Below are positions 2,209-40,433 of a stretch of 64,000 bases of DNA, in pieces (the stretch's first letter is position 1; each line of letters starts with the position of its first letter). The notes under the pieces are model-generated. The model was not told the DNA's origin and made no database searches. It saw only the letters and a list, made by a program, of their open reading frames with translations. The DNA is from Patescibacteria group bacterium (lineage in GTDB: Bacteria; Patescibacteriota; Minisyncoccia; UBA6257; 02-FULL-45-10c), in the NCBI GenBank assembly GCA_018969615.1, contig JAGWYA010000001.1:54567-118566 (forward strand), given 5' to 3'. The translations under genes were made by a program, and so were the position numbers.

Positions 2209-3396
2209 TTACGTCTTTTTGTACCGTCTGTACAACTCCTCCCAGGTATCGGCGACGCGGGGGATGGCATAGCGCTCCACTGATCGGCGCGCGCCTTTGC
2301 TCAGGCGCGACCAGGTCTTTTTATTTTTCAGGATCCCGATCAAGGCGTTTGCCATCCCTTCCGCATCTCCCGGCTCCACGATAAACCCGTTCTCCGGAGT
2401 GATATATTCAGGCAAGGCCCGGGCGTTGACGCCGACGGCCGGTAATCCGCAGGCAAGGGCCTGCATCAGGGTCATACTTTGCGTTTCCGACGTGCTTGCG
2501 ATCGCAAAAGCCCTTCCGGCGCGGTAGAGCTTCGCGAGAAGCGGCTTTTCAAGCGTACCCAAGAACCGGACATGCTGGACAACGTTCAGGTTCTTGGCAA
2601 GCATGCGCAGCTCATCGGCTCCGGCGCCATGGCCGGCAAGCGCAAGGACGACGTCGGGAACCTTTGCGCGCACCGCCGGCAGCGCACGGATAATAGTATC
2701 GATGTTCTTCTCCGCGGCGAGGCGGCCCGCGTAGACGATCGTGTTCGGCGACAGCTTCAATTTTTTGATCGTTTCTTCTTTTTCCTTTGCCTTGGCCACT
2801 TTTTCAGTGAAAAGATCGGTGTCGATCGGATTTGAAAGCGCCTGGTGCGGACGGACGAACCCGTTCGGGACCATTTCGGAAAAGACCGACTCGGACGGGG
2901 CGGTCACGAATTCGCAGGAATTGTAATACCAAACCGCATAGCGGAGCGCAAGCGATTTCGCCCACGGAAAGCGCACGGGAAGATAACGGACGAACTCGGT
3001 GATCGCCGTGTGGTTCGTGCCGATCACCGGAGTATGCGTCATCTTTCCGGCAAGGAGCGCCTCCAGCCCCACACCGAAGATAAGCTGCGTATGGATGATA
3101 TCGGGCTTGATCTTCCGCATCTCCCGGAGGCTTCCTCCGATCGGAAGCACGAGCCTGGCTTGCCCGGTCGGGGAAGGAACCGAGAAAGAGGACAGGCGAT
3201 GGATATGCACGTGCGGTCCGAGATCAAGCTCTTGCTGCAAAAGATTTCCTTTCCGGTAGTCCACAACGGAATATTGCGGAACAAAAAAATGGATCTCGTG
3301 TCCCCGCGCGGACAATGCTTTTGCGAGCGCAATAATAGAGTCAGCGATCCCGCTGAGCTCCGGAAAGAAATTATCTGAGAAAATGGCTATTTTCAT
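2209..3396 (-). CDS. glycosyltransferase family 4
   Basis: 395-aa ORF, MKIAIFSDNFFPELSGIA N-term and C-terminal GT4 EX7E-like region (GLPAVGVNARALPEYI). Confidence 0.8.
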   Translation of the reverse strand: MKIAIFSDNFFPELSGIADSIIALAKALSARGHEIHFFVPQYSVVDYRKGNLLQQELDLGPHVHIHRLSSFSVPSPTGQARLVLPIGGSLREMRKIKPDIIHTQLIFGVGLEALLAGKMTHTPVIGTNHTAITEFVRYLPVRFPWAKSLALRYAVWYYNSCEFVTAPSESVFSEMVPNGFVRPHQALSNPIDTDLFTEKVAKAKEKEETIKKLKLSPNTIVYAGRLAAEKNIDTIIRALPAVRAKVPDVVLALAGHGAGADELRMLAKNLNVVQHVRFLGTLEKPLLAKLYRAGRAFAIASTSETQSMTLMQALACGLPAVGVNARALPEYITPENGFIVEPGDAEGMANALIGILKNKKTWSRLSKGARRSVERYAIPRVADTWEELYRRYKKT

Positions 3397-16280: not shown

Positions 16281-17384
16281 TTACTTCTTCAGCTGTTCGA
16301 TCACGGCAACTTCCAGAGGCACTGCGGCGAACGGAGAATAACGCATCTCACTATAGGCGCGGATCAATAAACGGATCAGCGCGGTCATTTTCGCGGGATC
16401 TGACATGCCGGCATGTTTTTGGAGCATGCCGATCTCATCTTTGGTCAATTCCCGCTGATATGCGGCAAGCAATCCGGGGTCCATTTTCAGCGTCAACGCG
16501 CGGCGCAAATAATGAATGAGGTCTTTCGTGAATTGCACCACGTTATAGCCGCCCTGTTCGATCTCGTGGATATAGGAAAGCGCTTCCGGGAGCGATCCTG
16601 CCAGTAACAGTTCCGCAAGCTGGGCGGTCTTCTTATAGCCGATCTTTCCGGCGATCCGTTCAACGTCCTGCAGGGTAATATCCTGGTCAAGCGATGCGAT
16701 CTGTCCCAAAAGCGATTCGGCGTCGCGGACGCTGCCTTCGCCGAGCGCGGCAACCAACTCAACCGCATCATCATCGATCATGATCTTTTCGCTCTTTGCG
16801 ATCGCATGCAATTTCGTAATGATCTCGGGCAAAGCCACTTTGCGGAAATGGAAGCGCTGTGTCCGGGACGAAATGGTCGCGGGCACTTTCTCATATTCGG
16901 TCGTTGCCAGAATGAACACGGCGTGCGCTGGCGGCTCTTCAAGCGTCTTCAGCAGCGCATTGAACGCTTCGCGGGTCAGCATATGCACCTCATCGATAAT
17001 AAAGACCTTGGAATGATACGAGGTCGGGGAGAGGCGGACGCCTTCCTGAAGATCGCGGATCTCATCGATGCCGCGGTTCGAGGCCGCGTCGATCTCGATC
17101 ACGTCCAGCGCATGGCCGGTATCGATCTCAGTGCACGGACGGCATTCATTGCACGGCTCGCCCTTCGCTTTGAACTTCGCATCCTTCTGGCGCTTCTCGC
17201 AGTTCACCAGTTTTGCGATCAAACGCGCGGTGGTCGTCTTTCCGGAGCCGCGCGGACCATAGAACAAATAGGCATGCGCGAACGCATCGCGCCGCGCGGC
17301 GTTCCGCAGGATCTCCACGATATGTTCCTGACCCAAAAGGTCTTCAAATGTTTTCGGGCGGTATTTCCGGTAGATCGCGAGCAT
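16281..17384 (-). CDS. dnaX: DNA polymerase III subunit gamma/tau, short form
   Basis: YGPRGSGKTT Walker A, Zn-module CNECRPC, DEVHML, SRC motif; only 367 aa. Confidence 0.9.
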   Translation of the reverse strand: MLAIYRKYRPKTFEDLLGQEHIVEILRNAARRDAFAHAYLFYGPRGSGKTTTARLIAKLVNCEKRQKDAKFKAKGEPCNECRPCTEIDTGHALDVIEIDAASNRGIDEIRDLQEGVRLSPTSYHSKVFIIDEVHMLTREAFNALLKTLEEPPAHAVFILATTEYEKVPATISSRTQRFHFRKVALPEIITKLHAIAKSEKIMIDDDAVELVAALGEGSVRDAESLLGQIASLDQDITLQDVERIAGKIGYKKTAQLAELLLAGSLPEALSYIHEIEQGGYNVVQFTKDLIHYLRRALTLKMDPGLLAAYQRELTKDEIGMLQKHAGMSDPAKMTALIRLLIRAYSEMRYSPFAAVPLEVAVIEQLKK

Positions 17385-23381: not shown

Positions 23382-23509
23382 TAGATCTGCGATGCGCATT
23401 TAACTTTATTCGCATATCGAAATTGGATAACATTATAGAAAGCTACTATGACCATAGAGAATAATAAAATTATTTTTTGCGAATAAATGTCGCAGATTCA
23501 CTACCTGGT

Positions 23510-32986: not shown

Positions 32987-33361
32987 ATGACGACCGCCAA
33001 CGAGAAAGCCAAGGACGAGAAGAAGCAGCAGAGCGCGGAGACGCGCGCGAACATCGAGATCGCCCGCGAGCAGCGCGAGAAGCGCCAGGAGGCCAAGGCC
33101 AAGCGCATCGAGGACAGCATCCTCGCGCGCAGCCAGCGCACGCCGGCCGATCAGCTGGCGCTGCTGGACAAGCGCCTGGGAGTCGGCCAGGGCGCCATCG
33201 TCGAGCGGGCGCGGCTCGCCCTCGTCGCGTTCGACGCGAAGAACGGCGGGAAGGACGCGAAGCTCACCGGCGAGATGGCCATGAAGCGCAACCGCCTGGT
33301 GATGGGGCTGGACGGCTCCCGCTGCATGCGGCGCTTCGGCCTCAGTCCGCGGATGGCGTAA
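32987..33361 (+). CDS. hypothetical protein, K/E/R-rich N-terminus; compositionally foreign (GC3 ~95%)
   Basis: RBS AAAGGAG 6 nt before ATG; promoter TTGACT-N17(TGg)-TACTTT at ~32902-32933; terminator AGCCGGTTTTT-CCATAA-AAACCGGCT-TTTGTTTTT; codons almost exclusively G/C-ending. Confidence 0.55.
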   Translation: MTTANEKAKDEKKQQSAETRANIEIAREQREKRQEAKAKRIEDSILARSQRTPADQLALLDKRLGVGQGAIVERARLALVAFDAKNGGKDAKLTGEMAMKRNRLVMGLDGSRCMRRFGLSPRMA

Positions 33362-34197: not shown

Positions 34198-35562
34198 ATG
34201 ACACTTTTTCTCCGTAATAAATATATCAGCCTTCTCACGCTTGCATCCCTGCTTGCGGCATTCGCGCCGTCCGCATCCGTTATGGCGCAAACGCTGACCA
34301 GCGCCGAACGCGCCCAGCTTGAACAGCAGCTCGCACAGGTCCAGGCGGAACAGGCGCAGGCCCAAAGCCAGCTAGCTACCGCGCAATCAAAGTCGCGGTC
34401 GCTTCAAAACGATATCGACGTCCTGGCGGCGAAGGTCCGGGCTGAACAGCTCGACATCCAGGCGAAGAACCTTTTGATCCAAACACTTGGCGATAATATC
34501 ACCACGAAACAGGCCGAGATCGCATCGCTGGATGCGCAGATCGCTCAAAATAAACAAAGCATCTCTGACATCTTCCGCGCCCTGCAGCAAAGCGAGGACA
34601 CTCCGTTACTGGAATCGCTTCTGAAGAACAATTCGCTTTCGCAGCTATTCGATTATTCCATTGACCTCATCTCGCTGCAGCAGGGGATCGACACGCTTTC
34701 CGCGCAACTCGTTGCGAATGAGGCATCCAGTACGGCGGAAAAGGCGGTCCTGGTCGACCGGCAGAACGCCGCCGTCGATGCGCGCTATACGATCCAGCAG
34801 GAGCAAAAATCGCTCCAATCGAACCAATATCAGCAGCAGCAGCTTCTTTCGATCAGCAAGAACAATGAAGCGGCTTATTCCGCTCTCGTAACCGCGAAAA
34901 AAAAGGAAGCGGATGCCATTAATGCGAAGCTCTTCGTCCTTGCCGGCGGATCGAACCCGATCCCGTTCGGCAAAGCCTATCAATACGCCGTTGCCGCCTC
35001 GAACATAACCGGCGTTGATCCGGCATTCCTGCTTGCGATCCTGACCCAGGAATCAAACCTCGGTACGAACCAGGGAATGTGCTTCCTGAGAGACACCTCC
35101 ACCGGGTCCGGTGTCGGCGCGCATACCGGACGGACCTTTGAGAACGTCATGAGCCTGGGCAATATTCCCGACTTTATGACGATCACCTCCACGCTCGGGA
35201 TCGATCCGTTCAACACCGTTGTTTCATGCCCGCAATCGATCGGCTACGGCGGCGCCATGGGTCCGGCTCAATTTGAACCCTCTACCTGGATGCTGTTCTC
35301 TAACCGCGTCGGGAAAGCGCTCGGATTCACCAGCATGGCCGATCCATGGAACCCGCAGGACGCGTTCATGGCCTCCGCGCTATACTTGTCCGACCTCGGC
35401 GCCGGCGCAGGAACCTGGACCGCCGAAAGTAACGCGGCATGCCGCTACTATTCGGGCCGCACCTGCGCCCACTCATCGCTTATCGCAAGTTACGGCTATA
35501 GCGTCATGTCGCTCGCATCTTCGATCCAGCAGAACGAGATCAATAAGCTGACGGGGATCTAA
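34198..35562 (+). CDS. secreted coiled-coil protein with C-terminal lysozyme-like (SLT) domain
   Basis: Signal peptide, ~200-aa Q/A-rich coiled coil, then AFLLAILTQESNLG catalytic-Glu motif of lytic transglycosylases. Confidence 0.6.
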   Translation: MTLFLRNKYISLLTLASLLAAFAPSASVMAQTLTSAERAQLEQQLAQVQAEQAQAQSQLATAQSKSRSLQNDIDVLAAKVRAEQLDIQAKNLLIQTLGDNITTKQAEIASLDAQIAQNKQSISDIFRALQQSEDTPLLESLLKNNSLSQLFDYSIDLISLQQGIDTLSAQLVANEASSTAEKAVLVDRQNAAVDARYTIQQEQKSLQSNQYQQQQLLSISKNNEAAYSALVTAKKKEADAINAKLFVLAGGSNPIPFGKAYQYAVAASNITGVDPAFLLAILTQESNLGTNQGMCFLRDTSTGSGVGAHTGRTFENVMSLGNIPDFMTITSTLGIDPFNTVVSCPQSIGYGGAMGPAQFEPSTWMLFSNRVGKALGFTSMADPWNPQDAFMASALYLSDLGAGAGTWTAESNAACRYYSGRTCAHSSLIASYGYSVMSLASSIQQNEINKLTGI

Positions 35563-35643
35563 TAAACTTACTTTTTTATATTTCATTGCTTTATCTCCAC
35601 CGGGGGATTAAGCTTTATTTATTACTTTGAAAAGGAGGGTGAT

Positions 35644-35988
35644 GTGAAATCGGAAAATGAGGATATCGTCATCAAGGAAATAGAAGGGGTCTCGAATGCG
35701 CGAGAATTACATTTGCGCACGCTCTTGAGCGATTTCCCTGAGCATTACGAATGCCAGGCCGATGCCGTTCGATTCAATGTGAACGAACAGGCCGATAACC
35801 AAGCGTATGTTCTCGCAGGAAGTATGTTTCGCGCGACCGGCGTTCAAGAAGTGGAAATACACCGCTATATCGTTACGGTATGGATCAGCGCGGCTTTTCA
35901 GTGGGAAGAGCTTGAGAAAGAAATATGCGGAGTACTCCGCGCCTACCTCAAGATCAAGCACGCCGAAAATCAAAAGCCGAAGGAATGA
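35644..35988 (+). CDS. hypothetical protein (GTG start)
   Basis: RBS AAAGGAGGG; terminator ATCCGCTC-GAAA-GAGCGGAT-TTTTT at 36003-36030. Confidence 0.5.
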   Translation: MKSENEDIVIKEIEGVSNARELHLRTLLSDFPEHYECQADAVRFNVNEQADNQAYVLAGSMFRATGVQEVEIHRYIVTVWISAAFQWEELEKEICGVLRAYLKIKHAENQKPKE

Positions 35989-36095
35989 TCTCTGTATGAT
36001 CCGCTCGAAAGAGCGGATTTTTTATGAACAAAGAGGGAAGTGAGGCGGTTGAATTTCCGTTTCGATTCGTTTAAACTAGTTTCATTGCCAGATCG

Positions 36096-36166
36096 TCTAA
36101 TGGTAGGACACAGGACTCTGAATCCTGTTATCTTGGTTCGAATCCAAGTCTGGCAGCAAATAAAAA
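36096..36166 (+). tRNA. tRNA-Gln (anticodon CUG)
   Basis: Acceptor TGCCAGA/TCTGGCA, D arm GTCT-AATGGTA-GGAC, anticodon arm CAGGA-CTCTGAA-TCCTG, T arm CTTGG-TTCGAAT-CCAAG, discriminator G; CCA not encoded. Confidence 0.85.
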
Positions 36167-36343
36167 ATCTCTCTGGGCACAGCCGGGGAGATCTTTTATT
36201 TTGTTAGGATTCGAACCAGCCGCACCCCGTATCAGGAAGGCAGGAGCGAAGCGACGTTGGAAACCGAAGGTGTCCAAGACGGGGGTCGGGGTGCGGCGTG
36301 GTTCGAGTGAGCGAGCGGGTCATCTGACCGCGAGTGAAACTTA

Positions 36344-36360
36344 AATCCAAGTCTGGCAGC
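36344..36360 (+). repeat. exact 17-nt duplicate of the tRNA-Gln 3' end (att-like direct repeat)
   Basis: AATCCAAGTCTGGCAGC identical to 36151-36167; preceding CTTAAATCC resembles the T-loop. Confidence 0.8.
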
Positions 36361-36397
36361 TAGTAGCTTCAAAAAACCCGGCACTTAGCCGGGTTAG

Positions 36398-36601
36398 TTA
36401 CAAACTATTTTTTTTGGTTATTTCGATAAGATTGGGGTTCCGAATATATTCATTGCCTTGAATTTGGATCTTCCAGTTATTGAATTCATGTAGGACTTGC
36501 TCACGACTACCAATCATTGAAAGTTCTACATGATGCCATTTTCTACCCCTGAATTTTCTTTCCTGATAATGAATTTGAAACTCCGTTGAGATAGTGGTCA
36601 T
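36398..36601 (-). CDS. hypothetical protein (AT-rich)
   Basis: RBS GGAGGGG before ATG (MTTISTEF...); terminator AACCCGGC-ACTTA-GCCGGGTT at 36371-36395. Confidence 0.4.
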   Translation of the reverse strand: MTTISTEFQIHYQERKFRGRKWHHVELSMIGSREQVLHEFNNWKIQIQGNEYIRNPNLIEITKKNSL

Positions 36602-36680
36602 CACCCCTCCGCGATTCAAAGATCTAATTTAGATATAATAATAAAAATAGGCCGTCCTGTCAATTATTGTCCTTTTTCTG

Positions 36681-36712
36681 AGTTCGAAAGCTGTCCAAGA
36701 CCCCCAGATAGT
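36681..36712 (+). repeat. degenerate tRNA-3'-end-like repeat B
   Basis: GTTCGAAAGCTGTCCAAGACCCCCAGAT; 24/26 identical to copy C (37313-37340); shares GTTCGAA..TCCAAG with the tRNA T-arm/acceptor. Confidence 0.6.
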
Positions 36713-36748
36713 ATTGATAAAAAGATATAAATTTTTTAACATTAAAAC

Positions 36749-37267
36749 ATGGGATTCGAAAATATGAATCGGGCAATGCCAAGTCCTGAAAAAAAGGCTG
36801 AAGTAGCCTCAAATGAAAAGAAGGCTCAGCTTGAGGCAAACATGCTGAAAGCAAAGTTAAAAGAAAGGCTTGATTTTGGCAAGGAGCCCACAAAAGAAGA
36901 CTACGATGTTGCCCTCCAAGAACTGGAAGAGCTGAAAAAGCTTGCCGAAAAGGACCCTGAAGGACTTGAGAAAATTGTGCAATATGCAAGTCGATCTGCC
37001 ATAGGCGCTGCGACTGCGCTTAGTACTATTGGTGCGCTCGCCGAAGAAACGCTGATCAAAGCAGGTCTTTTTGACGCGGGAGGGGAAAATGGCTCGATCA
37101 TGGGCGGAGAAGGACATGGTTATGGCGATATTTTAAAGAAGAAAGCTGATTTTATAAAAAAACTTTTTACCAAAGACAGCGAAGTGCTTTGGAATGACGC
37201 CCAAAGGCAGATCCTAGCTCTTCAGAAAGAAGCTGGCCGGATCGCAGAAGATGAATCATCTAAGTAG
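36749..37267 (+). CDS. hypothetical protein (172 aa)
   Basis: Lys/Glu-rich N-terminus; bracketed by direct repeats B and C. Confidence 0.5.
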   Translation: MGFENMNRAMPSPEKKAEVASNEKKAQLEANMLKAKLKERLDFGKEPTKEDYDVALQELEELKKLAEKDPEGLEKIVQYASRSAIGAATALSTIGALAEETLIKAGLFDAGGENGSIMGGEGHGYGDILKKKADFIKKLFTKDSEVLWNDAQRQILALQKEAGRIAEDESSK

Positions 37268-37312
37268 GGAGCGGCGCTCAGTAAGCGCCGTTTCTATTTT
37301 GAAAATATAGTA

Positions 37313-37340
37313 GCTGCAAAGCTGTCCAAGACTCCCAGGT
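37313..37340 (+). repeat. degenerate tRNA-3'-end-like repeat C
   Basis: GCAAAGCTGTCCAAGACTCCCAGGTCG, preceded by TAGTAGCT as is the copy at 36361. Confidence 0.6.
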
Positions 37341-37386
37341 CGTTTTTTGAAAATAAAAAAGCTCCGCCGAAGCGGAGCTGAGGAAC

Positions 37387-37884
37387 TTACTTTTCGTTCT
37401 TATTGAGAAAGATGACGGATTTGACCACGCCTCCATTGAAAACGCGAATGGATGCTTGGACGCCGCTGATGGTCGTACCGTGATAAAGCAGCCGCATTCC
37501 GATCACCGCATTAGAAGGAATGGTCCACCAAGAACCGTTCACCTTCACCTGAGTGCAACGCTTCCCTCCGGAAGAAAAGTCGAGTAAGTCTCGAATGGAC
37601 GGGCCGTTGCCGAGCAGGCTAGCCTCAAGGACGAGATACCTTGCTTTATTCGGATCGGGGCCATCGCTGAACTCTTCTTCTGTCCCAATAGTGACCGGGG
37701 GGCGAGGCTGAGCGAAATGGACCTGCACGGGAACACGGCGAAAGATCACCCATGGCTTCGCGTGGTAGTCCGGCCACTGCACCGTCGTGCTTGTCGAAGG
37801 GTTCACCGCGGAAACCGCGGTGGTCGCCATGCTTCCGAAGCAGGGCATCAGACACATCGCCAACACCAGACCCAACTTCTTCAT
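37387..37884 (-). CDS. secreted hypothetical protein
   Basis: Signal peptide MKKLGLVLAMCLMPCFGSMA; RBS GGAGGAAG; terminator AGCTCCGC-CGAA-GCGGAGCT at 37352-37378. Confidence 0.55.
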   Translation of the reverse strand: MKKLGLVLAMCLMPCFGSMATTAVSAVNPSTSTTVQWPDYHAKPWVIFRRVPVQVHFAQPRPPVTIGTEEEFSDGPDPNKARYLVLEASLLGNGPSIRDLLDFSSGGKRCTQVKVNGSWWTIPSNAVIGMRLLYHGTTISGVQASIRVFNGGVVKSVIFLNKNEK

Positions 37885-38078
37885 GCTTCCTCCGTCCTGT
37901 TTTTGAAAGTAGAAGACCTGATCCCAATATAGGGGAGGAGAACCTAAAAAACAAGGGTTCGAAAATTATCCGTAGCTCCCGGCAAACTCAAAAAGGATCA
38001 GGCCTTCAATGAAAGGGCGCGTGTTTAAGTAAGGCCCATCCATCGCGCTCAAGGATAGAAAATGATAGAATAAAAACC

Positions 38079-38507
38079 ATGAAAACCGCAAAAGAAAAGC
38101 TGCAAGCTGCCATACAATATGCAATGGCAAATCGTCCGAAGATCGGCGGGTTTCCATTCCTTGCGGAGTGCCTCCGGCGGGCGGGAGTAGAACGTAATTT
38201 TTGGTCGCTTCCCGGAGCGCAAAGTATCTATGTCATGAAAGACGACGCCGTTTTTAATCAAGGCACCCCCTTGGCGTCAGGAATGGGGGATGTGCCCGCT
38301 TTCGATGAAAAGGCCCTTATTACCGCGCTTCGCACCGATCAGGCGGGACAAAGCACATTTCCGGAATTCCTTATTGCTTCGTGGAAAGCCGGCGTTATCA
38401 GTTATGAAGTCGATCTTTCCGCCCGCACTGTCACATACCGCGGCGCTCAAGGGGGAAAATATATCGAATCGTACCCGGCAGTTGAGATCGGCGACATGGG
38501 GATCTAG
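38079..38507 (+). CDS. DUF1398-like (YbcV-like) protein
   Basis: Recalled family pattern FPEFLIASWKAGVISYEVDLSARTVTYRG; TAGAAT -10 8 nt upstream of ATG. Confidence 0.4.
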   Translation: MKTAKEKLQAAIQYAMANRPKIGGFPFLAECLRRAGVERNFWSLPGAQSIYVMKDDAVFNQGTPLASGMGDVPAFDEKALITALRTDQAGQSTFPEFLIASWKAGVISYEVDLSARTVTYRGAQGGKYIESYPAVEIGDMGI

Positions 38508-38621
38508 CTGATCCATCCAAACATTGGATCCGATAAGAAGCCGTGTACGATCTGTGCGCTGTGCGCAAGGCCGAGGATGTCAGTAGTAAAAAAACCCGCG
38601 CAGTGCTTGCGCGGGATCGAT

Positions 38622-39071
38622 CTAGAGATCTTTAACGAACTCTCTGAATTCGGGATCCGGGACTCCGTTTTTATCGGCCTCAGGAGGAAGGGGTTCGGCT
38701 TTGAATTTCTTCTCCACCCATTCTCGGACCTGTTGATCCGCGATCCCTTTCATGGCTTCTTCGGCACATTCCGCCCTGAGCTCCAAATGGAGCCCGGGAT
38801 CGACCGCCTCGATGACCATCCTGAAAGTAACCTCCTGCCGATACGCGAGCCTCAGACGCTCGTGAAATTCTGTATAAGGGAATTCTCCGGCGTCGTGCTC
38901 TTCAAGGCGCACCATCGCAGGCTGGAGAAACATACCGAGACTAACTCCTTCGGCACTTTCCGGAGCCGTTCGATCGTGTTCAAGAATGAATCGCTGACCA
39001 TGATCCTCGATCACTGCTCGTCCAGTCTCACGGCAGAACACTGCCTTGGCCATCAGGAACCTCTTTATCAT
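38622..39071 (-). CDS. hypothetical protein (149 aa)
   Basis: Terminator CCCGCGCA-GTGCTT-GCGCGGG right after the stop. Confidence 0.45.
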   Translation of the reverse strand: MIKRFLMAKAVFCRETGRAVIEDHGQRFILEHDRTAPESAEGVSLGMFLQPAMVRLEEHDAGEFPYTEFHERLRLAYRQEVTFRMVIEAVDPGLHLELRAECAEEAMKGIADQQVREWVEKKFKAEPLPPEADKNGVPDPEFREFVKDL

Positions 39072-39123
39072 TATTTTGAACTAACTCCACTATAAAGCTC
39101 CGATGCCACTTTTTCAATAAAAA

Positions 39124-39894
39124 CTACAGCAGATCTTTATATCCGTTCATAAAATCCCTGTACGCCATCGGTTTTTTGCCTTCCGGCTGGACTTTGAGAA
39201 GAACCAGTGCGCCATCTTTCAATTCGGCTTCAAGCAGTTTCATCCGGATCTGTTTTCCGTTCTTCAGTGAGAGGATCGTGAACGCACCCGGCTCAGGGTT
39301 CATCGCGCGGACCTTCCGCGCCACCACTTTCGGATCGTCAGCCTTCAGATCAACCTGCGCGTCGGCGGTCACGAATTTCTTCGTGAACGTCGCCGCTTTT
39401 TCATTCTGAGATTCCGCATGCAAAGTTCCATCAAGCCACTTCGGCAACGCCGCGACCAAAAGTCCGGAGCCGAGATGAGCAAGCCGGTCGATCATCGTTT
39501 CATAGGTGTCCGTTTCCGCGATCGGCGCCACAGCGCTTGCAAGGACCGGCCCGTGATCAACGCCTTCATCGATCTGAAAGATCGCCACGCCCGTTTCGTG
39601 CTCGCCGGCAAGGATCGCCGACTGAATAGGGGAGGCGCCGCGGTATTTCGGCAGCAGGGACGGATGCACGCCCAGCGTTCCTTTCGGCGGGATCTCCAGC
39701 AGATCTTTTTTCAGGATCTTGCCGAACGCCGCCACCACGAACACATCCGCCTTCAGCGACTTCAAATATTCCAGGTCCAGCGGCGCGCGCGCATCGCGGA
39801 TCTCCGCGGCCGGCGTCATGCCCGCTTTCTTCAGATCATCGAGAACCAGTTGTGCGAAGCGGGATTCCTGCCCGCCGAAGAAGACATAGCGCAT
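39124..39894 (-). CDS. fmt: methionyl-tRNA formyltransferase (short form)
   Basis: Formyltransferase N-domain motifs (VVAAFGKIL, HPSLLPKYRGASPIQ). Confidence 0.85.
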   Translation of the reverse strand: MRYVFFGGQESRFAQLVLDDLKKAGMTPAAEIRDARAPLDLEYLKSLKADVFVVAAFGKILKKDLLEIPPKGTLGVHPSLLPKYRGASPIQSAILAGEHETGVAIFQIDEGVDHGPVLASAVAPIAETDTYETMIDRLAHLGSGLLVAALPKWLDGTLHAESQNEKAATFTKKFVTADAQVDLKADDPKVVARKVRAMNPEPGAFTILSLKNGKQIRMKLLEAELKDGALVLLKVQPEGKKPMAYRDFMNGYKDLL

Positions 39895-39941
39895 AGATAG
39901 TAAGTAGTACGTTGGCAGTAGGCAGTAAAAAGACGGTGGGA

Positions 39942-40433
39942 TTAAGAATGTTCGACTTCATATTTATGCAGCCCCGTCGCTTTATCGATAAAAACCGTGC
40001 CGTTCAAGTGATCGGTCTCATGCTGGAACACGCGGGCGAGCAGGCCCCACGCTTTGATCTTGATCTTCTTGCCGTTCTTGTCATACCCCTCCAGCGTCAC
40101 TTTCTCCGGACGGGTCACGTCGCCGAACACCTCGGGCACGCTCAGGCATCCCTCTTCGATCGTGTCCGTTTCGCGGGAGAACTTCGTGATCTTCGAATTA
40201 AAGATCGCGTAGAACTTGTCATTGACCAGCGCGACGAACACATGCATATCAAGTCCGATCTGGTTCGCGCTCAGGCCGACACCGTTCGCATCCTTCATCG
40301 CTTTGCGCATGCGCGTGAGAAGCGCGCGGATCTCTTTCGGGGAATGTTTTGAAAAATCAAAAGGCGCCATCCGTTTGCGGAGGAGCTTCAGTTCCTGCTT
40401 GTTGTCGATCACCCAAATGCCGTGTTCGGTCAT
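39942..40433 (-). CDS. def: peptide deformylase
   Basis: GLSANQIG, EGCLS, HETDHLNG metal-binding motifs. Confidence 0.9.
   Translation of the reverse strand: MTEHGIWVIDNKQELKLLRKRMAPFDFSKHSPKEIRALLTRMRKAMKDANGVGLSANQIGLDMHVFVALVNDKFYAIFNSKITKFSRETDTIEEGCLSVPEVFGDVTRPEKVTLEGYDKNGKKIKIKAWGLLARVFQHETDHLNGTVFIDKATGLHKYEVEHS

Follow-up and report, generated by a model that had tools for sequence, protein, structure and literature searches.

The DNA immediately downstream of the tRNA-Gln(CUG) gene in the analysed window, a stretch of 64 kb from a Patescibacteria group bacterium, is interpreted with moderate confidence as an integration hotspot with two layers. The first layer is a small element which has been maintained behind the tRNA gene, and the second is cargo that is found in this lineage only. 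The original prediction had described the 3' end of tRNA-Gln as an integration site followed by elements that appear decayed or are non-autonomous cassettes. The assignment as a hotspot was borne out, as the closest relative, L285, lacks positions 36361-38589 and the breakpoint lies at 36360; the 186-nt interval next to the tRNA gene, however, is not a decayed scar.

The Repeat of the tRNA-Gln 3' End

ARAGORN found one tRNA-Gln, and the Rfam covariance models gave no second tRNA match in the window up to E = 10. This part of the locus is composed as follows:

36086-36157, + strand: tRNA-Gln(CUG) (ARAGORN; Rfam tRNA 36086-36156, 65.9 bits)
36158-36202: intrinsic terminator, bidirectional, consisting of A-tract, 10-bp stem and T-tract; immediately adjoins the tRNA and makes up the left part of the 186-nt insert
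36207-36307, + strand: long imperfect hairpin, left arm 36207-36229, right arm 36287-36307
36243-36252: GAGCGAAGCG motif, preceding the inner hairpin
36257-36277, + strand: inner hairpin, TTGGAAAC, loop CGAAG, GTGTCCAA
36344-36360, + strand: second 17-nt copy of the tRNA 3' end, 17/17 identical in L285

The tRNA-Gln gene is 100% identical between the window and L285. The sequence AATCCAAGTCTGGCAGC is present in exactly two copies in the 64 kb, at 36141-36157 and 36344-36360, with a start-to-start distance of 203 nt and 186 nt between the copies; two or more matches were obtained in 0 of 100 shuffles. The exact recurrence of the tRNA end had been recognized before, but its first copy had been placed at 36151-36167. 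Compared with the ARAGORN and Rfam positions, both this copy and the tRNA start had been set 10 nt too high, and the gap, given earlier as 176 bp, was measured as 186 nt. As in genomic islands, an intact tRNA gene was found at one border, and its 3' segment recurs in direct orientation at the junction. The tRNA segment 36141-36157, from the T-loop to the 3' end, is the putative recombination target and the first repeat copy. With 36344-36360, the small element ends on its right side and the lineage-specific block is bounded on its left.

Structure of the 186-nt Element

Both repeat copies are kept within 36141-36360, and this region contains no ORF. The 186-nt element is strongly folded, and a folding z of -5 was determined for the region of the long hairpin. 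This hairpin had been noticed earlier and exists, but its arms, previously assigned to 36203-36222 and 36282-36300, are located at 36207-36229 and 36287-36307. The left arm opens with GGATTCGAACCA; in reverse complement, this is segment 36134-36145 of the tRNA T-arm. Both arms resemble fragments of a tRNA T-arm plus the variable region and, read in reverse complement, the arm sequence equals that of genuine tRNA-Arg and tRNA-Ser genes of L293 and L294. The arms are kept in L285 and L292, and the long outer hairpin is conserved in sequence, with no compensatory changes.

For the inner hairpin, a comparison of five homologs revealed that 97.5% of the cells are paired and that five of the eight pairs carry compensatory double changes. 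This covariation was matched by 0 of 500 shuffles, and slid controls were paired to 25-58%. The 3' strand of this conserved, covarying hairpin is the sequence at about 36270-36285 that had been listed as a third relative of the repeat; it is not an att remnant.

A strong terminator stands between tRNA-Gln and the remainder of the element. Neither a promoter nor a remnant of a recombinase gene was found for the 186-nt element. With Rfam 15, 36158-36360 matched no family, the tRNA being the only match in the window with E up to 10, and six related loci likewise gave the tRNA alone with E up to 1. Just one copy of the element was found in the window, as in each of the loci retrieved.

Conservation in the Closest Relative

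L285 shares about 88% DNA identity with the window, and the gene order is kept. The element with its repeat is 97.5% identical to L285 (five differences in 203 nt), with 97.3% for the element alone and 100% for the repeat. In the surroundings, identities of 85.9% for SLT, 93.0% for NfuN, 69.1% and 85.6% for the spacers and 83.2% for the o149 region were obtained. The element together with the repeat is the best-conserved non-tRNA sequence of the locus, and so few differences (at most five in 203 nt) would be expected with a probability of 7e-7 at the average rate of the block and of 8e-16 at the spacer rate. The differences are unevenly distributed, with 4 in the 49 nt of terminator and linker versus 1 in the 154 nt of core and repeat (Fisher p = 0.013), so that the latter are 99.4% identical; two of the five differences fall in the terminator 36158-36202.

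A Family of Elements in Patescibacteria

Judged from shared motifs and a shared hairpin, the element belongs to a previously undescribed family which is located directly 3' of tRNA-Gln in Patescibacteria. The window element and the small elements behind tRNA-Gln in other Patescibacteria have a covarying hairpin and motifs in common, and family elements are structured, about 130-200 nt long, contain tRNA fragments and are kept under constraint at tRNA-Gln. For the interior of the element, a Smith-Waterman score of 33 was obtained against L124, compared to 16.5 +/- 2.5 for shuffles (0/500 as good). Sequence and covariance models built from the four closest relatives did not retrieve the window copy as a whole, and family membership is therefore based on homology at the level of motifs and hairpins. 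Further copies were identified with the covariance model in L138, L144 and L143, the last containing two tandem element copies with identical ends.

Presence and absence of such elements were seen in related genomes. L002 contains a 174-nt element with a 15-nt repeat, and its relative L003 has an empty site with the same downstream flank. A second pair is formed by L056, which is empty, and L141, with a 7.7-kb island and an 18-nt repeat. Such pairs could also result from deletion between the repeats instead of insertion. The species-representative genomes identified via the SLT protein, of which the closest are 66-68% identical, show no synteny around the tRNA; they were of no use for an empty-site test and were the source of the L002/L003 pair. 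In several independent events with unrelated contents, those of the window, L072, L095, L141, L143 and L153, the start of the repeat coincides with or adjoins one T-loop position, (G)AATCC.

L292, which is more distant, also has a copy of the window type behind tRNA-Gln, in the same position and orientation as in the window and L285, but here the element is present without the repeat. An element can thus do without the repeat, and instead of having been inserted it could be a functional sequence resident at this site. The corresponding alternative, in which the element and its repeat form a functional structure of RNA or of single-stranded DNA that is linked to tRNA-Gln and inherited vertically, with the "empty" sites produced by deletion between repeats, is considered possible but improbable. 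An example would be a transcript whose 3' end mimics that of tRNA-Gln for processing. The shared location in these three genomes, the strong and uneven conservation with its maximum of 99.4% in core and repeat, the covariation of the hairpin and the exact end of the conserved block at the 3' end of the repeat are in agreement with it. However, no Rfam match and no promoter were found for the element, which is cut off from the tRNA by a strong terminator. Moreover, a homologous element in L158 sits inside a foreign insert, the repeat of the homologous element in L124 is mismatched to the resident tRNA, tandem copies are present in L143, and the close relative L289 contains no element; all this speaks against the alternative.

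The Lineage-Specific Block

Between SLT and def, L285 has the window sequence in collinear order. In blastn, the homology ends at 36360 and resumes at 38590, showing that 36361-38589 is a lineage-specific insertion which begins at the end of the repeat:

36361-38589: lineage-specific block, 2229 nt, containing o73, o172, o165 and a DUF1398 protein; no recombinase encoded
36398-36619, - strand: o73, 73 aa; promoter 36663-36635 (strong, 11/12), terminator at about 36373-36400
36682-36707, + strand: degenerate tRNA-3'-end-like motif GTTCGAA[AGCTG]TCCAAGACCCCCAG, left edge of the block shared with L284
36749-37267, + strand: o172, 172 aa, cargo
37308-37338, + strand: TAGTAGCT followed by a second motif copy, AAAGCTGTCCAAGACTCCCAG; direct repeat with 36687-36707 around o172
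37387-37884, - strand: o165, with a signal-peptide-like N-terminus, distal part of the block
38079-38507, + strand: DUF1398 protein, distal part of the block
38590-39123, - strand: conserved flank with o149 and its terminator, 83% identity to L285; followed by fmt and def
38622-39071: o149, conserved in the closest relative

By blastn, the block is absent from L285 and L286, and the closest relative contains 52 unrelated nt in its place; o165 and the DUF1398 protein are missing in both L285 and L289. Independent assemblies of the same species (L001/L005, L039) do contain the block. As for other islands, presence and absence among relatives thus coincide with a left breakpoint at the att core, 36360. 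At the right border, no copy of the core was identified, and a degenerate repeat sought at 38570-38589 gave no convincing match. The GC content drops to 0.35-0.46 at 36.3-37.3 kb compared to about 0.52 around, which agrees with the AT-rich segment reported before at 36.4-37.3 kb. The variable DNA had been thought to reach about 39.1 kb; since o149 is conserved in L285, it ends at 38589. This separates conserved element, lineage-specific cargo and native flank on the corrected map of the window.

No Pfam or PHROGs match was obtained for o73, the PHROGs search on the island ORFs gave nothing meaningful, and blastn of 36158-38589 against phage and plasmid collections gave no match. The homolog search with NfuN returned the protein itself alone, and exact-protein look-ups of NfuN and Fmt returned only identical fragments from the same species.

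The only real homolog of o172 is P0003 in L284, with 73% identity. The same tRNA-Gln 3' end stands at the beginning of the L284 contig, and behind it are encoded a large serine recombinase, a Rep of the rolling-circle type, an ATPase and a NERD protein; the o172 homolog is located 5.7 kb downstream of the tRNA 3' end, behind the serine-recombinase element. Homology between the window and L284 begins at the GTTCGAA of the motif at 36682, and L284 carries a motif of this type with its own tRNA variant. After the 5-nt insertion, the window motif matches the tRNA 3' end at 10 of 15 positions, and the L284 motif matches its own tRNA at 12 of 15. The motif 36682-36707 is probably an old attR-type junction.

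Around o172, the copies 36687-36707 and 37318-37338 have 20 of 21 nt in common. Motifs of the AAGCTGTCCAAGAC type are located at 36267, 36688 and 37319 with at most one mismatch, and at least three matches were found in 1 of 100 shuffles. The degenerate copies flanking o172 were thus confirmed as present, alike and similar to the tRNA end, but their shared derived features identify them as copies of each other and not as independent decays of the tRNA end. The occurrence of TAGTAGCT at 36361 and 37308 was also verified, and a third copy is located on the minus strand at 23441. As an att core, TAGTAGCT was rejected, three copies in 128 kb of both strands being close to expectation; it is left as a weak hint.

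Taken literally, the prediction would make all of 36158 to about 39.1 kb dead integration debris, with the 186-nt interval as a functionless, gutted island. The repeat of the tRNA end with its degenerate copies, the patchy composition, the lack of an integrase and the absence of the block from L285 are consistent with this reading, which we nevertheless regard as unlikely. For 36158-36360 it is already contradicted, since the interval and its repeat, being 97.5% identical to L285, are conserved far above the neutral expectation (P of about 1e-6 or below) and the covarying hairpin is common to elements of other species. In addition, o149 belongs to the conserved flank outside any island.

Recombinases and Other Occupants of tRNA-Gln Loci

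No homologs of LSR, GIY-YIG, IS110 or Rep proteins were detected by tblastn in the whole window, and Pfam identified no integrase among the ORFs of 36.3-39.1 kb, so that the earlier statement that no integrase remains holds for both searches. Also, no excisionase or transfer gene was found in the window.

For comparison, 120 tRNA-Gln loci were sampled. In L078, L086, L106, L126, L142, L149 and L284, the gene directly next to the tRNA encodes a protein with the domains Resolvase, Recombinase and Zn_ribbon_recom, and its reading frame runs antisense into the tRNA. These serine-recombinase elements contain no small element at the tRNA-proximal end, which makes their link to it circumstantial. GIY-YIG ORFs are located directly 3' of tRNA-Gln in 14 of the 120 loci. 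In this locus and its relatives, tRNA-Gln(CUG) is a common docking site for large serine-recombinase elements with a gene overlapping the tRNA in antisense, GIY-YIG cassettes, IS110 and gene islands without a recombinase.

The element and the block might also have been placed by a free-standing GIY-YIG homing cassette which targets the tRNA-Gln 3' end, the window retaining an ORF-less remnant. Besides the 14 loci, the GIY-YIG ORFs between tRNA and repeat in L072 and L150, the GIY-YIG gene at the orthologous site of L289 and a hairpin resembling a cassette flank right after the repeat in L285 point in this direction. Yet neither such a gene nor a remnant of it was found in the window, the element has no sequence in common with the cassette flanks, and homing by double-strand-break repair alone makes no target repeats, so that this origin is very unlikely. 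Truncated tandem copies resembling tRNA-Gln occur in L104, L157 and L151, but a tandem duplication of the tRNA-Gln gene with decay of the second copy is hardly credible here. The recurrence is limited to 17 nt of the tRNA, and the 186 nt which precede the second copy have no direct similarity to tRNA-Gln (no D-arm or anticodon-arm similarity is visible upstream of 36344); what they hold is a terminator, the T-loop copy in inverted orientation and motifs specific to the family.

In viral contigs, the 17-mer att core gave four matches, about the number expected by chance and all in coding-like sequence without tRNA context. A longer degenerate pattern of the tRNA end gave no match, a loose scan with CTTGGAN{2,20}GGGGTCGGG produced only noise, with no family member found by nhmmer among its matches.

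A Model for the Two Layers

In the two-layer interpretation, the element 36158-36360 would have been placed by site-specific recombination, and we infer an exchange in the T-loop around TTCG|AATCC. By this insertion, the tRNA would keep a functional 3' end and gain a terminator, while the displaced 3' end would become the repeat. The core and the repeat are maintained and not decaying, and would most likely act as an att-bearing module that offers another site for landing, and/or as a structured nucleic acid, either RNA or single-stranded DNA. The cargo 36361-38589 would then have accreted at the second target copy in this lineage only, in the order o73, o172 between the two degenerate tRNA-end-like motifs, o165 and DUF1398. 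The recombinase would have been supplied in trans and was probably a serine recombinase; the best candidates may be the large serine recombinases which abut the same tRNA in relatives with the frame antisense into the tRNA. Points against the model are the lack of recombinase, excisionase and transfer genes in the window, the missing tRNA-end copy at the right border of the 2.2-kb block and the single-copy state of the element.

If the locus is still mobile, excision of the small element would give the circle junction ...GAGTGAAACTTA-AATCCAAGTCTGGCAGC-AAATAAAAAATC (GAGTGAAACTTA-AATCCAAGTCTGGCAGC-AAATAAAAAATCTC), and its loss would leave the empty site tRNA|TAGTAGCTTC (tRNA|TAGTAGCTTCAAAAAACCCGG). 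Loss of the 2.2-kb block would leave repeat|AAAAAACCCGCGC (repeat|AAAAAACCCGCGCAG).

More speculatively, and with low probability, the small elements could represent a new class of minimal, protein-free integrative modules, or a new structured RNA which these carry. Their stems, made of tRNA fragments (the 3' end or T-arm, once inverted and once direct), would mimic a tRNA attachment site when folded. Serine-recombinase and rolling-circle elements of Patescibacteria would use them as attP sites or as landing pads that can be carried along, which would make them a tRNA-mimicking analogue of integron attC and of the folded att site of CTX phage. If true, portable att sites or a new RNA would explain the exchange of small cargo at a fixed site in reduced genomes without integrases, and compact pairs of recombinase and att site would become available for engineering.

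Comparison to Known Systems

The mobile elements of Patescibacteria (CPR) have been charted only poorly. Integrative elements are established to accrete in tandem at att cores which have been restored (PMC7192596, PMC5704250). The locus resembles tRNA-targeted IGEs and their tandem arrays of the Islander/TIGER type (PMC7192596) in the intact tRNA at the end, the direct repeat of the 3' segment at the junction, the lineage-specific block with precise breakpoints and the further insertion at a restored core, which would lead to an array. In contrast to these, it has no internal integrase and no repeat at the distal border, its tRNA-proximal unit is conserved and of only 186 nt, and the candidate enzymes in relatives are serine and not tyrosine recombinases.

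Cis-mobilizable elements (CIMEs) are kilobase-sized decayed ICEs or IMEs. Like the CIMEs of Firmicutes, where CIME-IME/ICE accretion is described (PMC5704250), the unit described here is bounded by attL- and attR-like sequences and is without recombination and transfer genes. It differs from them in its size of about 0.2 kb, its high degree of structure and its membership in a sequence family with a covarying hairpin. We know of no conjugative partner in Patescibacteria.

A similarity to the large serine recombinases of the phiC31, Bxb1 and A118 type is given by the Resolvase/Recombinase/Zn_ribbon_recom proteins at the tRNA-proximal end of inserts in relatives. Furthermore, the left repeat borders cluster at one T-loop position, which fits a fixed crossover dinucleotide and unrelated P arms. 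For serine integrases, an identity of 2 nt usually suffices, and they are "not known for targeting tRNA genes" (PMC7192596). Here, in contrast, the target is a tRNA gene, the ORF runs antisense into it, and none is present in the window; serine integrases would thus be able to target a tRNA gene, outside their known habit.

The element may also be compared to integron attC and CTX-phage attP, folded single-strand sites in which short imperfect palindromes of about 60-150 nt form the recombination substrate. Cassettes with one ORF or none, arrayed at one site, would be a further common feature. The rolling-circle Rep of the single-stranded-phage type in L284 would be in line with such a system. 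However, no integron integrase, Xer sites or GTTRRRY core are present here. Serine recombinases act on duplex DNA.

In phage T4, free-standing GIY-YIG endonucleases of the SegB type are found in tRNA gene clusters, and the GIY-YIG ORFs of L072, L150 and L289 are similarly tied to tRNA genes as selfish cassettes. Unlike these, the window contains no GIY-YIG gene, and a repeat-flanked architecture is not known for seg genes.

Other Readings of the Element

Several further assignments were rejected. A MITE or an IS-derived miniature element would have terminal inverted repeats, a short target-site duplication and many dispersed copies; the element is present once in the window and the other loci, and the 17-nt repeat is the end of the tRNA. 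Some relatives (L158b) do have tRNA-end-like inverted termini. A role of the inverted tRNA copy as a primer-binding site was discarded, as the complementarity enters the genomic trailer and not CCA. Group I intron, T-box, SRP-like and tmRNA-like readings had no support from Rfam. A reading as a minus-strand tRNA gene was dismissed, since the covariance models gave no match and the 3' T-stem is not kept among the window, L285 and L292.

The tRNA-Gln Gene and the Copies of Its 3' End

A normal tRNA-Gln(CUG) gene was identified by ARAGORN and Rfam, confirming the gene named in the original prediction but placing it 10 nt further upstream. As had been noticed, an exact second copy of its terminal 17 nt, AATCCAAGTCTGGCAGC (36141-36157), is present at 36344-36360; the copies are 203 nt apart from start to start, and the gap between them is 186 nt, not 176 bp. 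Two matches to AATCCAAGTCTGGCAGC were obtained in 0 of 100 shuffles, and no third copy with up to 3 mismatches is present elsewhere in the window. The features of this region are the following:

36086-36157: normal tRNA-Gln(CUG) (ARAGORN and Rfam)
36158-36202: bidirectional terminator, within the interval between tRNA-Gln and repeat
36207-36218: GGATTCGAACCA, perfect reverse complement of a tRNA-Gln T-arm segment
36207-36229 and 36287-36307: arms of an imperfect 21-bp hairpin, in a region folding with z = -5

The motif AAG(C/G)TGTCCAAGAC is found at 36267, 36688 and 37319; the latter two copies, identical over an extended 20 of 21 bases, flank the open reading frame o172. Across 36.3-37.3 kb, the GC content drops to 0.35-0.46.

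Elsewhere in the window, ARAGORN reported a 'tRNA-???' with a 4-base anticodon (cgcg) at 17020-17097, in GC-rich coding-like sequence; it is absent from the output of the Rfam tRNA model and is probably a false positive. At 33000-33300, the GC content rises to a local peak of 0.70 and the sequence is strongly skewed to purines and to A over T (AT skew 0.52); this segment lies in overlapping open reading frames with a high content of Lys, Glu, Arg and Ala.

The Orthologous Locus in Relatives

Two stretches of the window recur at 100% identity elsewhere: 34799-36894 on a 2.1-kb contig of the Patescibacteria MAG REEB161, and 37943-40271 on a Logan contig. The arrangement is thus present in independent assemblies of one species. 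Orthologous contigs were reached through Fmt homologs, and the gene order SLT, NfuN, tRNA-Gln ... fmt, def is kept. The window is homologous to the relatives L285 and L286 (92% identity in Fmt, about 88% in DNA) from 34247 onward; this homology breaks off exactly at the end of the second 17-mer (36360) and is resumed at 38590, the o149 terminator. In L285, 52 unrelated bases replace the 2229 of the window. This gap (36361-38589) implies that o73, o172, o165 and the DUF1398 gene are lineage-specific, while o149 belongs to the native flank. An empty site in relatives had been proposed as a check on integration, and a much emptier one was indeed found in L285, its left breakpoint being the end of the repeat.

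In L289 (Fmt 82%), a GIY-YIG gene lies directly 3' of tRNA-Gln, and neither the 186-nt element nor the repeat is present at this locus. In L291 and L292 (Fmt 65-66%), tRNA-Gln is located within 0.05-1.1 kb of fmt in a different arrangement. L285 also contains an extra ORF of 121 aa between the o149 homolog and fmt (2796-3161, locus orientation) that the window lacks; thus, the interval is variable on its fmt side as well.

The 2.2-kb Block

Five ORFs separate the repeat from fmt, and a weak DUF1398 match was all that Pfam gave for them. The single non-self homolog of o172 (73% identity) was identified on the contig L284, which starts with a tRNA-Gln 3' end identical to that of the window at 30 of 31 bases. 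It is followed by a serine recombinase, a REP_ORF2-G2P replication protein, an AAA_15/AAA_21 ATPase and a NERD protein, and then by the motif GTTCGAA[AATTG]TCCAGAGCTGCCAGC and the o172 homolog. At the DNA level, the window and L284 are homologous from the GTTCGAA of the window motif at 36682 to the o172 stop codon. Between tRNA and motif, L284 contains a 5.7-kb recombinase element, where the window contains the small element and o73. Past its 5-nt insertion, the motif matches the tRNA 3' end of its own genome at 10 of 15 positions (window) or 12 of 15 (L284), as would be expected of an old attR-type junction.

The motif copy at 37318-37338 has the insertion of the first copy and other derived bases in common with it, which identifies the pair as a direct repeat around o172 and not as separate tRNA-end copies that decayed independently. 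A tRNA-end copy was not found at the right border of the block (38589/38590).

The 186-nt Interval and Related Small Elements

Metagenome contigs were scanned for the window-type tRNA-Gln 3' end, which yielded 120 loci. In many of these, a second copy of the tRNA end lies 77-385 nt downstream, and in some 1.5-7.7 kb downstream. A recurrent order was identified in the window, L002, L099, L108, L124, L138, L143 and L158: a terminator or an AT-rich stretch comes first, the T-loop or 3' end of the tRNA follows in inverted form 20-70 nt past tRNA-Gln, and GC-rich hairpins precede the direct repeat. The window interior aligned to that of L124 with a Smith-Waterman score of 33 (shuffles 16.5 +/- 2.5; 0/500), the common pieces being CCCCG-(U)AGGAA-GCAG-GCGAAGCG and an 8-bp hairpin with the loop CGNNG. 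Across five homologs of this hairpin, 97.5% of cells are paired and compensatory double changes occur in 5 of the 8 pairs; this was equalled by 0 of 500 shuffles, and slid controls were 25-58% paired. The window sequence GTGTCCAA, previously taken for a third repeat remnant, is the 3' strand of this hairpin. In L292, tRNA-Gln is followed by a copy of the window type that shares its arm sequences and has no direct repeat. Neither the small element of the window nor those at six related loci matched any Rfam family. On these sequence comparisons, the 186-nt interval is best described as a member of a family of small elements 3' of tRNA-Gln.

When reverse-complemented, the arm GGATTCGAACCAGCNGCACC of the long hairpin equals T-arm and variable-region sequence of genuine tRNA genes for Arg and Ser; the 20-nt left arm matches the reverse complement of tRNA-Arg(CCG) (L293:7147-7222) and tRNA-Ser(GCT) (L294:10891-10978), both on viral contigs. 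This suggests that a tRNA different from tRNA-Gln was the source of the arms, and the stems appear to be assembled from tRNA fragments.

Between the window and L285, identity is 85.9% for SLT, 93.0% for NfuN, 69.1% and 85.6% for two intergenic spacers, 83.2% for the o149 region, 97.3% (5 differences) for the 186-nt interval, and 100% for both tRNA-Gln and the 17-nt repeat. If the 203 nt had diverged at the block-average rate, at most 5 differences would have a probability of 7e-7; for the spacer rate, the value is 8e-16. With the surroundings, tRNA aside, at 69.1-93.0%, the interval does not have the appearance of the decayed element initially assumed. Four of the five differences fall in the terminator and linker (49 nt) and one in the other 154 nt (Fisher p = 0.013), and constraint on core and repeat fits this better than a uniformly young insert.

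Enzymes Encoded at tRNA-Gln

An all-against-all comparison of the ORFs downstream of tRNA-Gln revealed two recurrent families. Small GIY-YIG proteins (about 80-120 aa) are encoded immediately 3' of tRNA-Gln at 14 loci (L048, L051, L055, L059, L061, L072, L076, L081, L091, L104, L121, L128, L150, L155), and also in L289 and L292; in L072 and L150 they lie between tRNA-Gln and the repeat. Hairpin flanks such as ACTTCGGCAAG...GCCGAAG are frequent, and a remnant of such a flank directly follows the repeat in L285.

Large serine recombinases were identified at 10 loci. At six of these (L078, L086, L106, L126, L142, L149) and in L284, the ORF occupies the tRNA-proximal 1.5-1.7 kb on the opposite strand and runs antisense through the 3' half of tRNA-Gln, so that the C-terminus (e.g. 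...DLDSNQ) is encoded by the T-arm. These recombinases are mutually only 24-29% identical, implying an old association with tRNA-Gln. No tyrosine integrase was seen among the ORFs downstream of tRNA-Gln in the loci compared. In L060, an IS110 transposase (DEDD_Tnp_IS110 and Transposase_20) is encoded about 1.6 kb after tRNA-Gln, between two tRNA-3'-end-like copies.

Evidence for Gain, Loss and Movement at tRNA-Gln

In L002, a 174-nt element and a 15-nt repeat precede CAACTCGAGC, and in its relative L003 the tRNA is joined straight to this same flank, CAACTCGAGC. L143 carries two elements in tandem with identical left and right ends. A 7.7-kb island in L141, encoding a sugar dehydrogenase, a two-component system, a glycosyltransferase and secreted proteins and no recombinase, lies between the tRNA-Gln end and its 18-nt repeat, and L056 represents the corresponding empty site. 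Among independent events whose inserts are unrelated, several have a repeat that starts at or beside one and the same T-loop position, (G)AATCC. In L124, the acceptor sequence of the repeat differs from that of the resident, self-consistent tRNA-Gln, and L158 contains two 'TCTGGC'-type small elements within a 1.6-kb insert in a 'CCCGC'-type host; these mismatches imply that elements have moved between tRNA-Gln variants.

Accretion at tRNA attachment sites has been described for integrative elements (PMC7192596, PMC5704250), and it is the most economical reading of the present locus. A small att-bearing module would have been placed against tRNA-Gln, and its distal repeat would have served as a second target copy, at which the window lineage gained further cargo. 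Unlike in textbook accretion, the proximal unit in the window is 0.2 kb long, protein-free and structured, and appears to be a constrained member of a family; the recombinase class in the relatives (serine) departs as well.

Further rearrangements of tRNA genes were observed. In L138 (10560-11010), the resident tRNA-Gln is cut into a 5' fragment (acceptor and D-arm) and a 3' fragment by an insert carrying a different, complete tRNA-Gln, and a small element with its own repeat comes next. In L035 (4680-5000), tRNA-Thr(TGT) is followed by an insert of about 145 nt and a 34-nt T-arm and acceptor copy with compensatory T-stem changes, and upstream there is a 5' fragment of tRNA-Thr; such rearrangements thus extend beyond tRNA-Gln. 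Truncated or expanded tRNA-Gln-like tandem copies occupy the first 80-140 nt after tRNA-Gln in L104, L157, L070, L151 and L095; several start with TGGCGGG(G/A)TGAAGTAG and have a reduced D-arm, and some have T-arm insertions. Another recurrent motif after tRNA-Gln, GCAGTGCCCAG followed by a hairpin and GGGTA, was identified in L083, L090, L097 and L002 (9790-9830).
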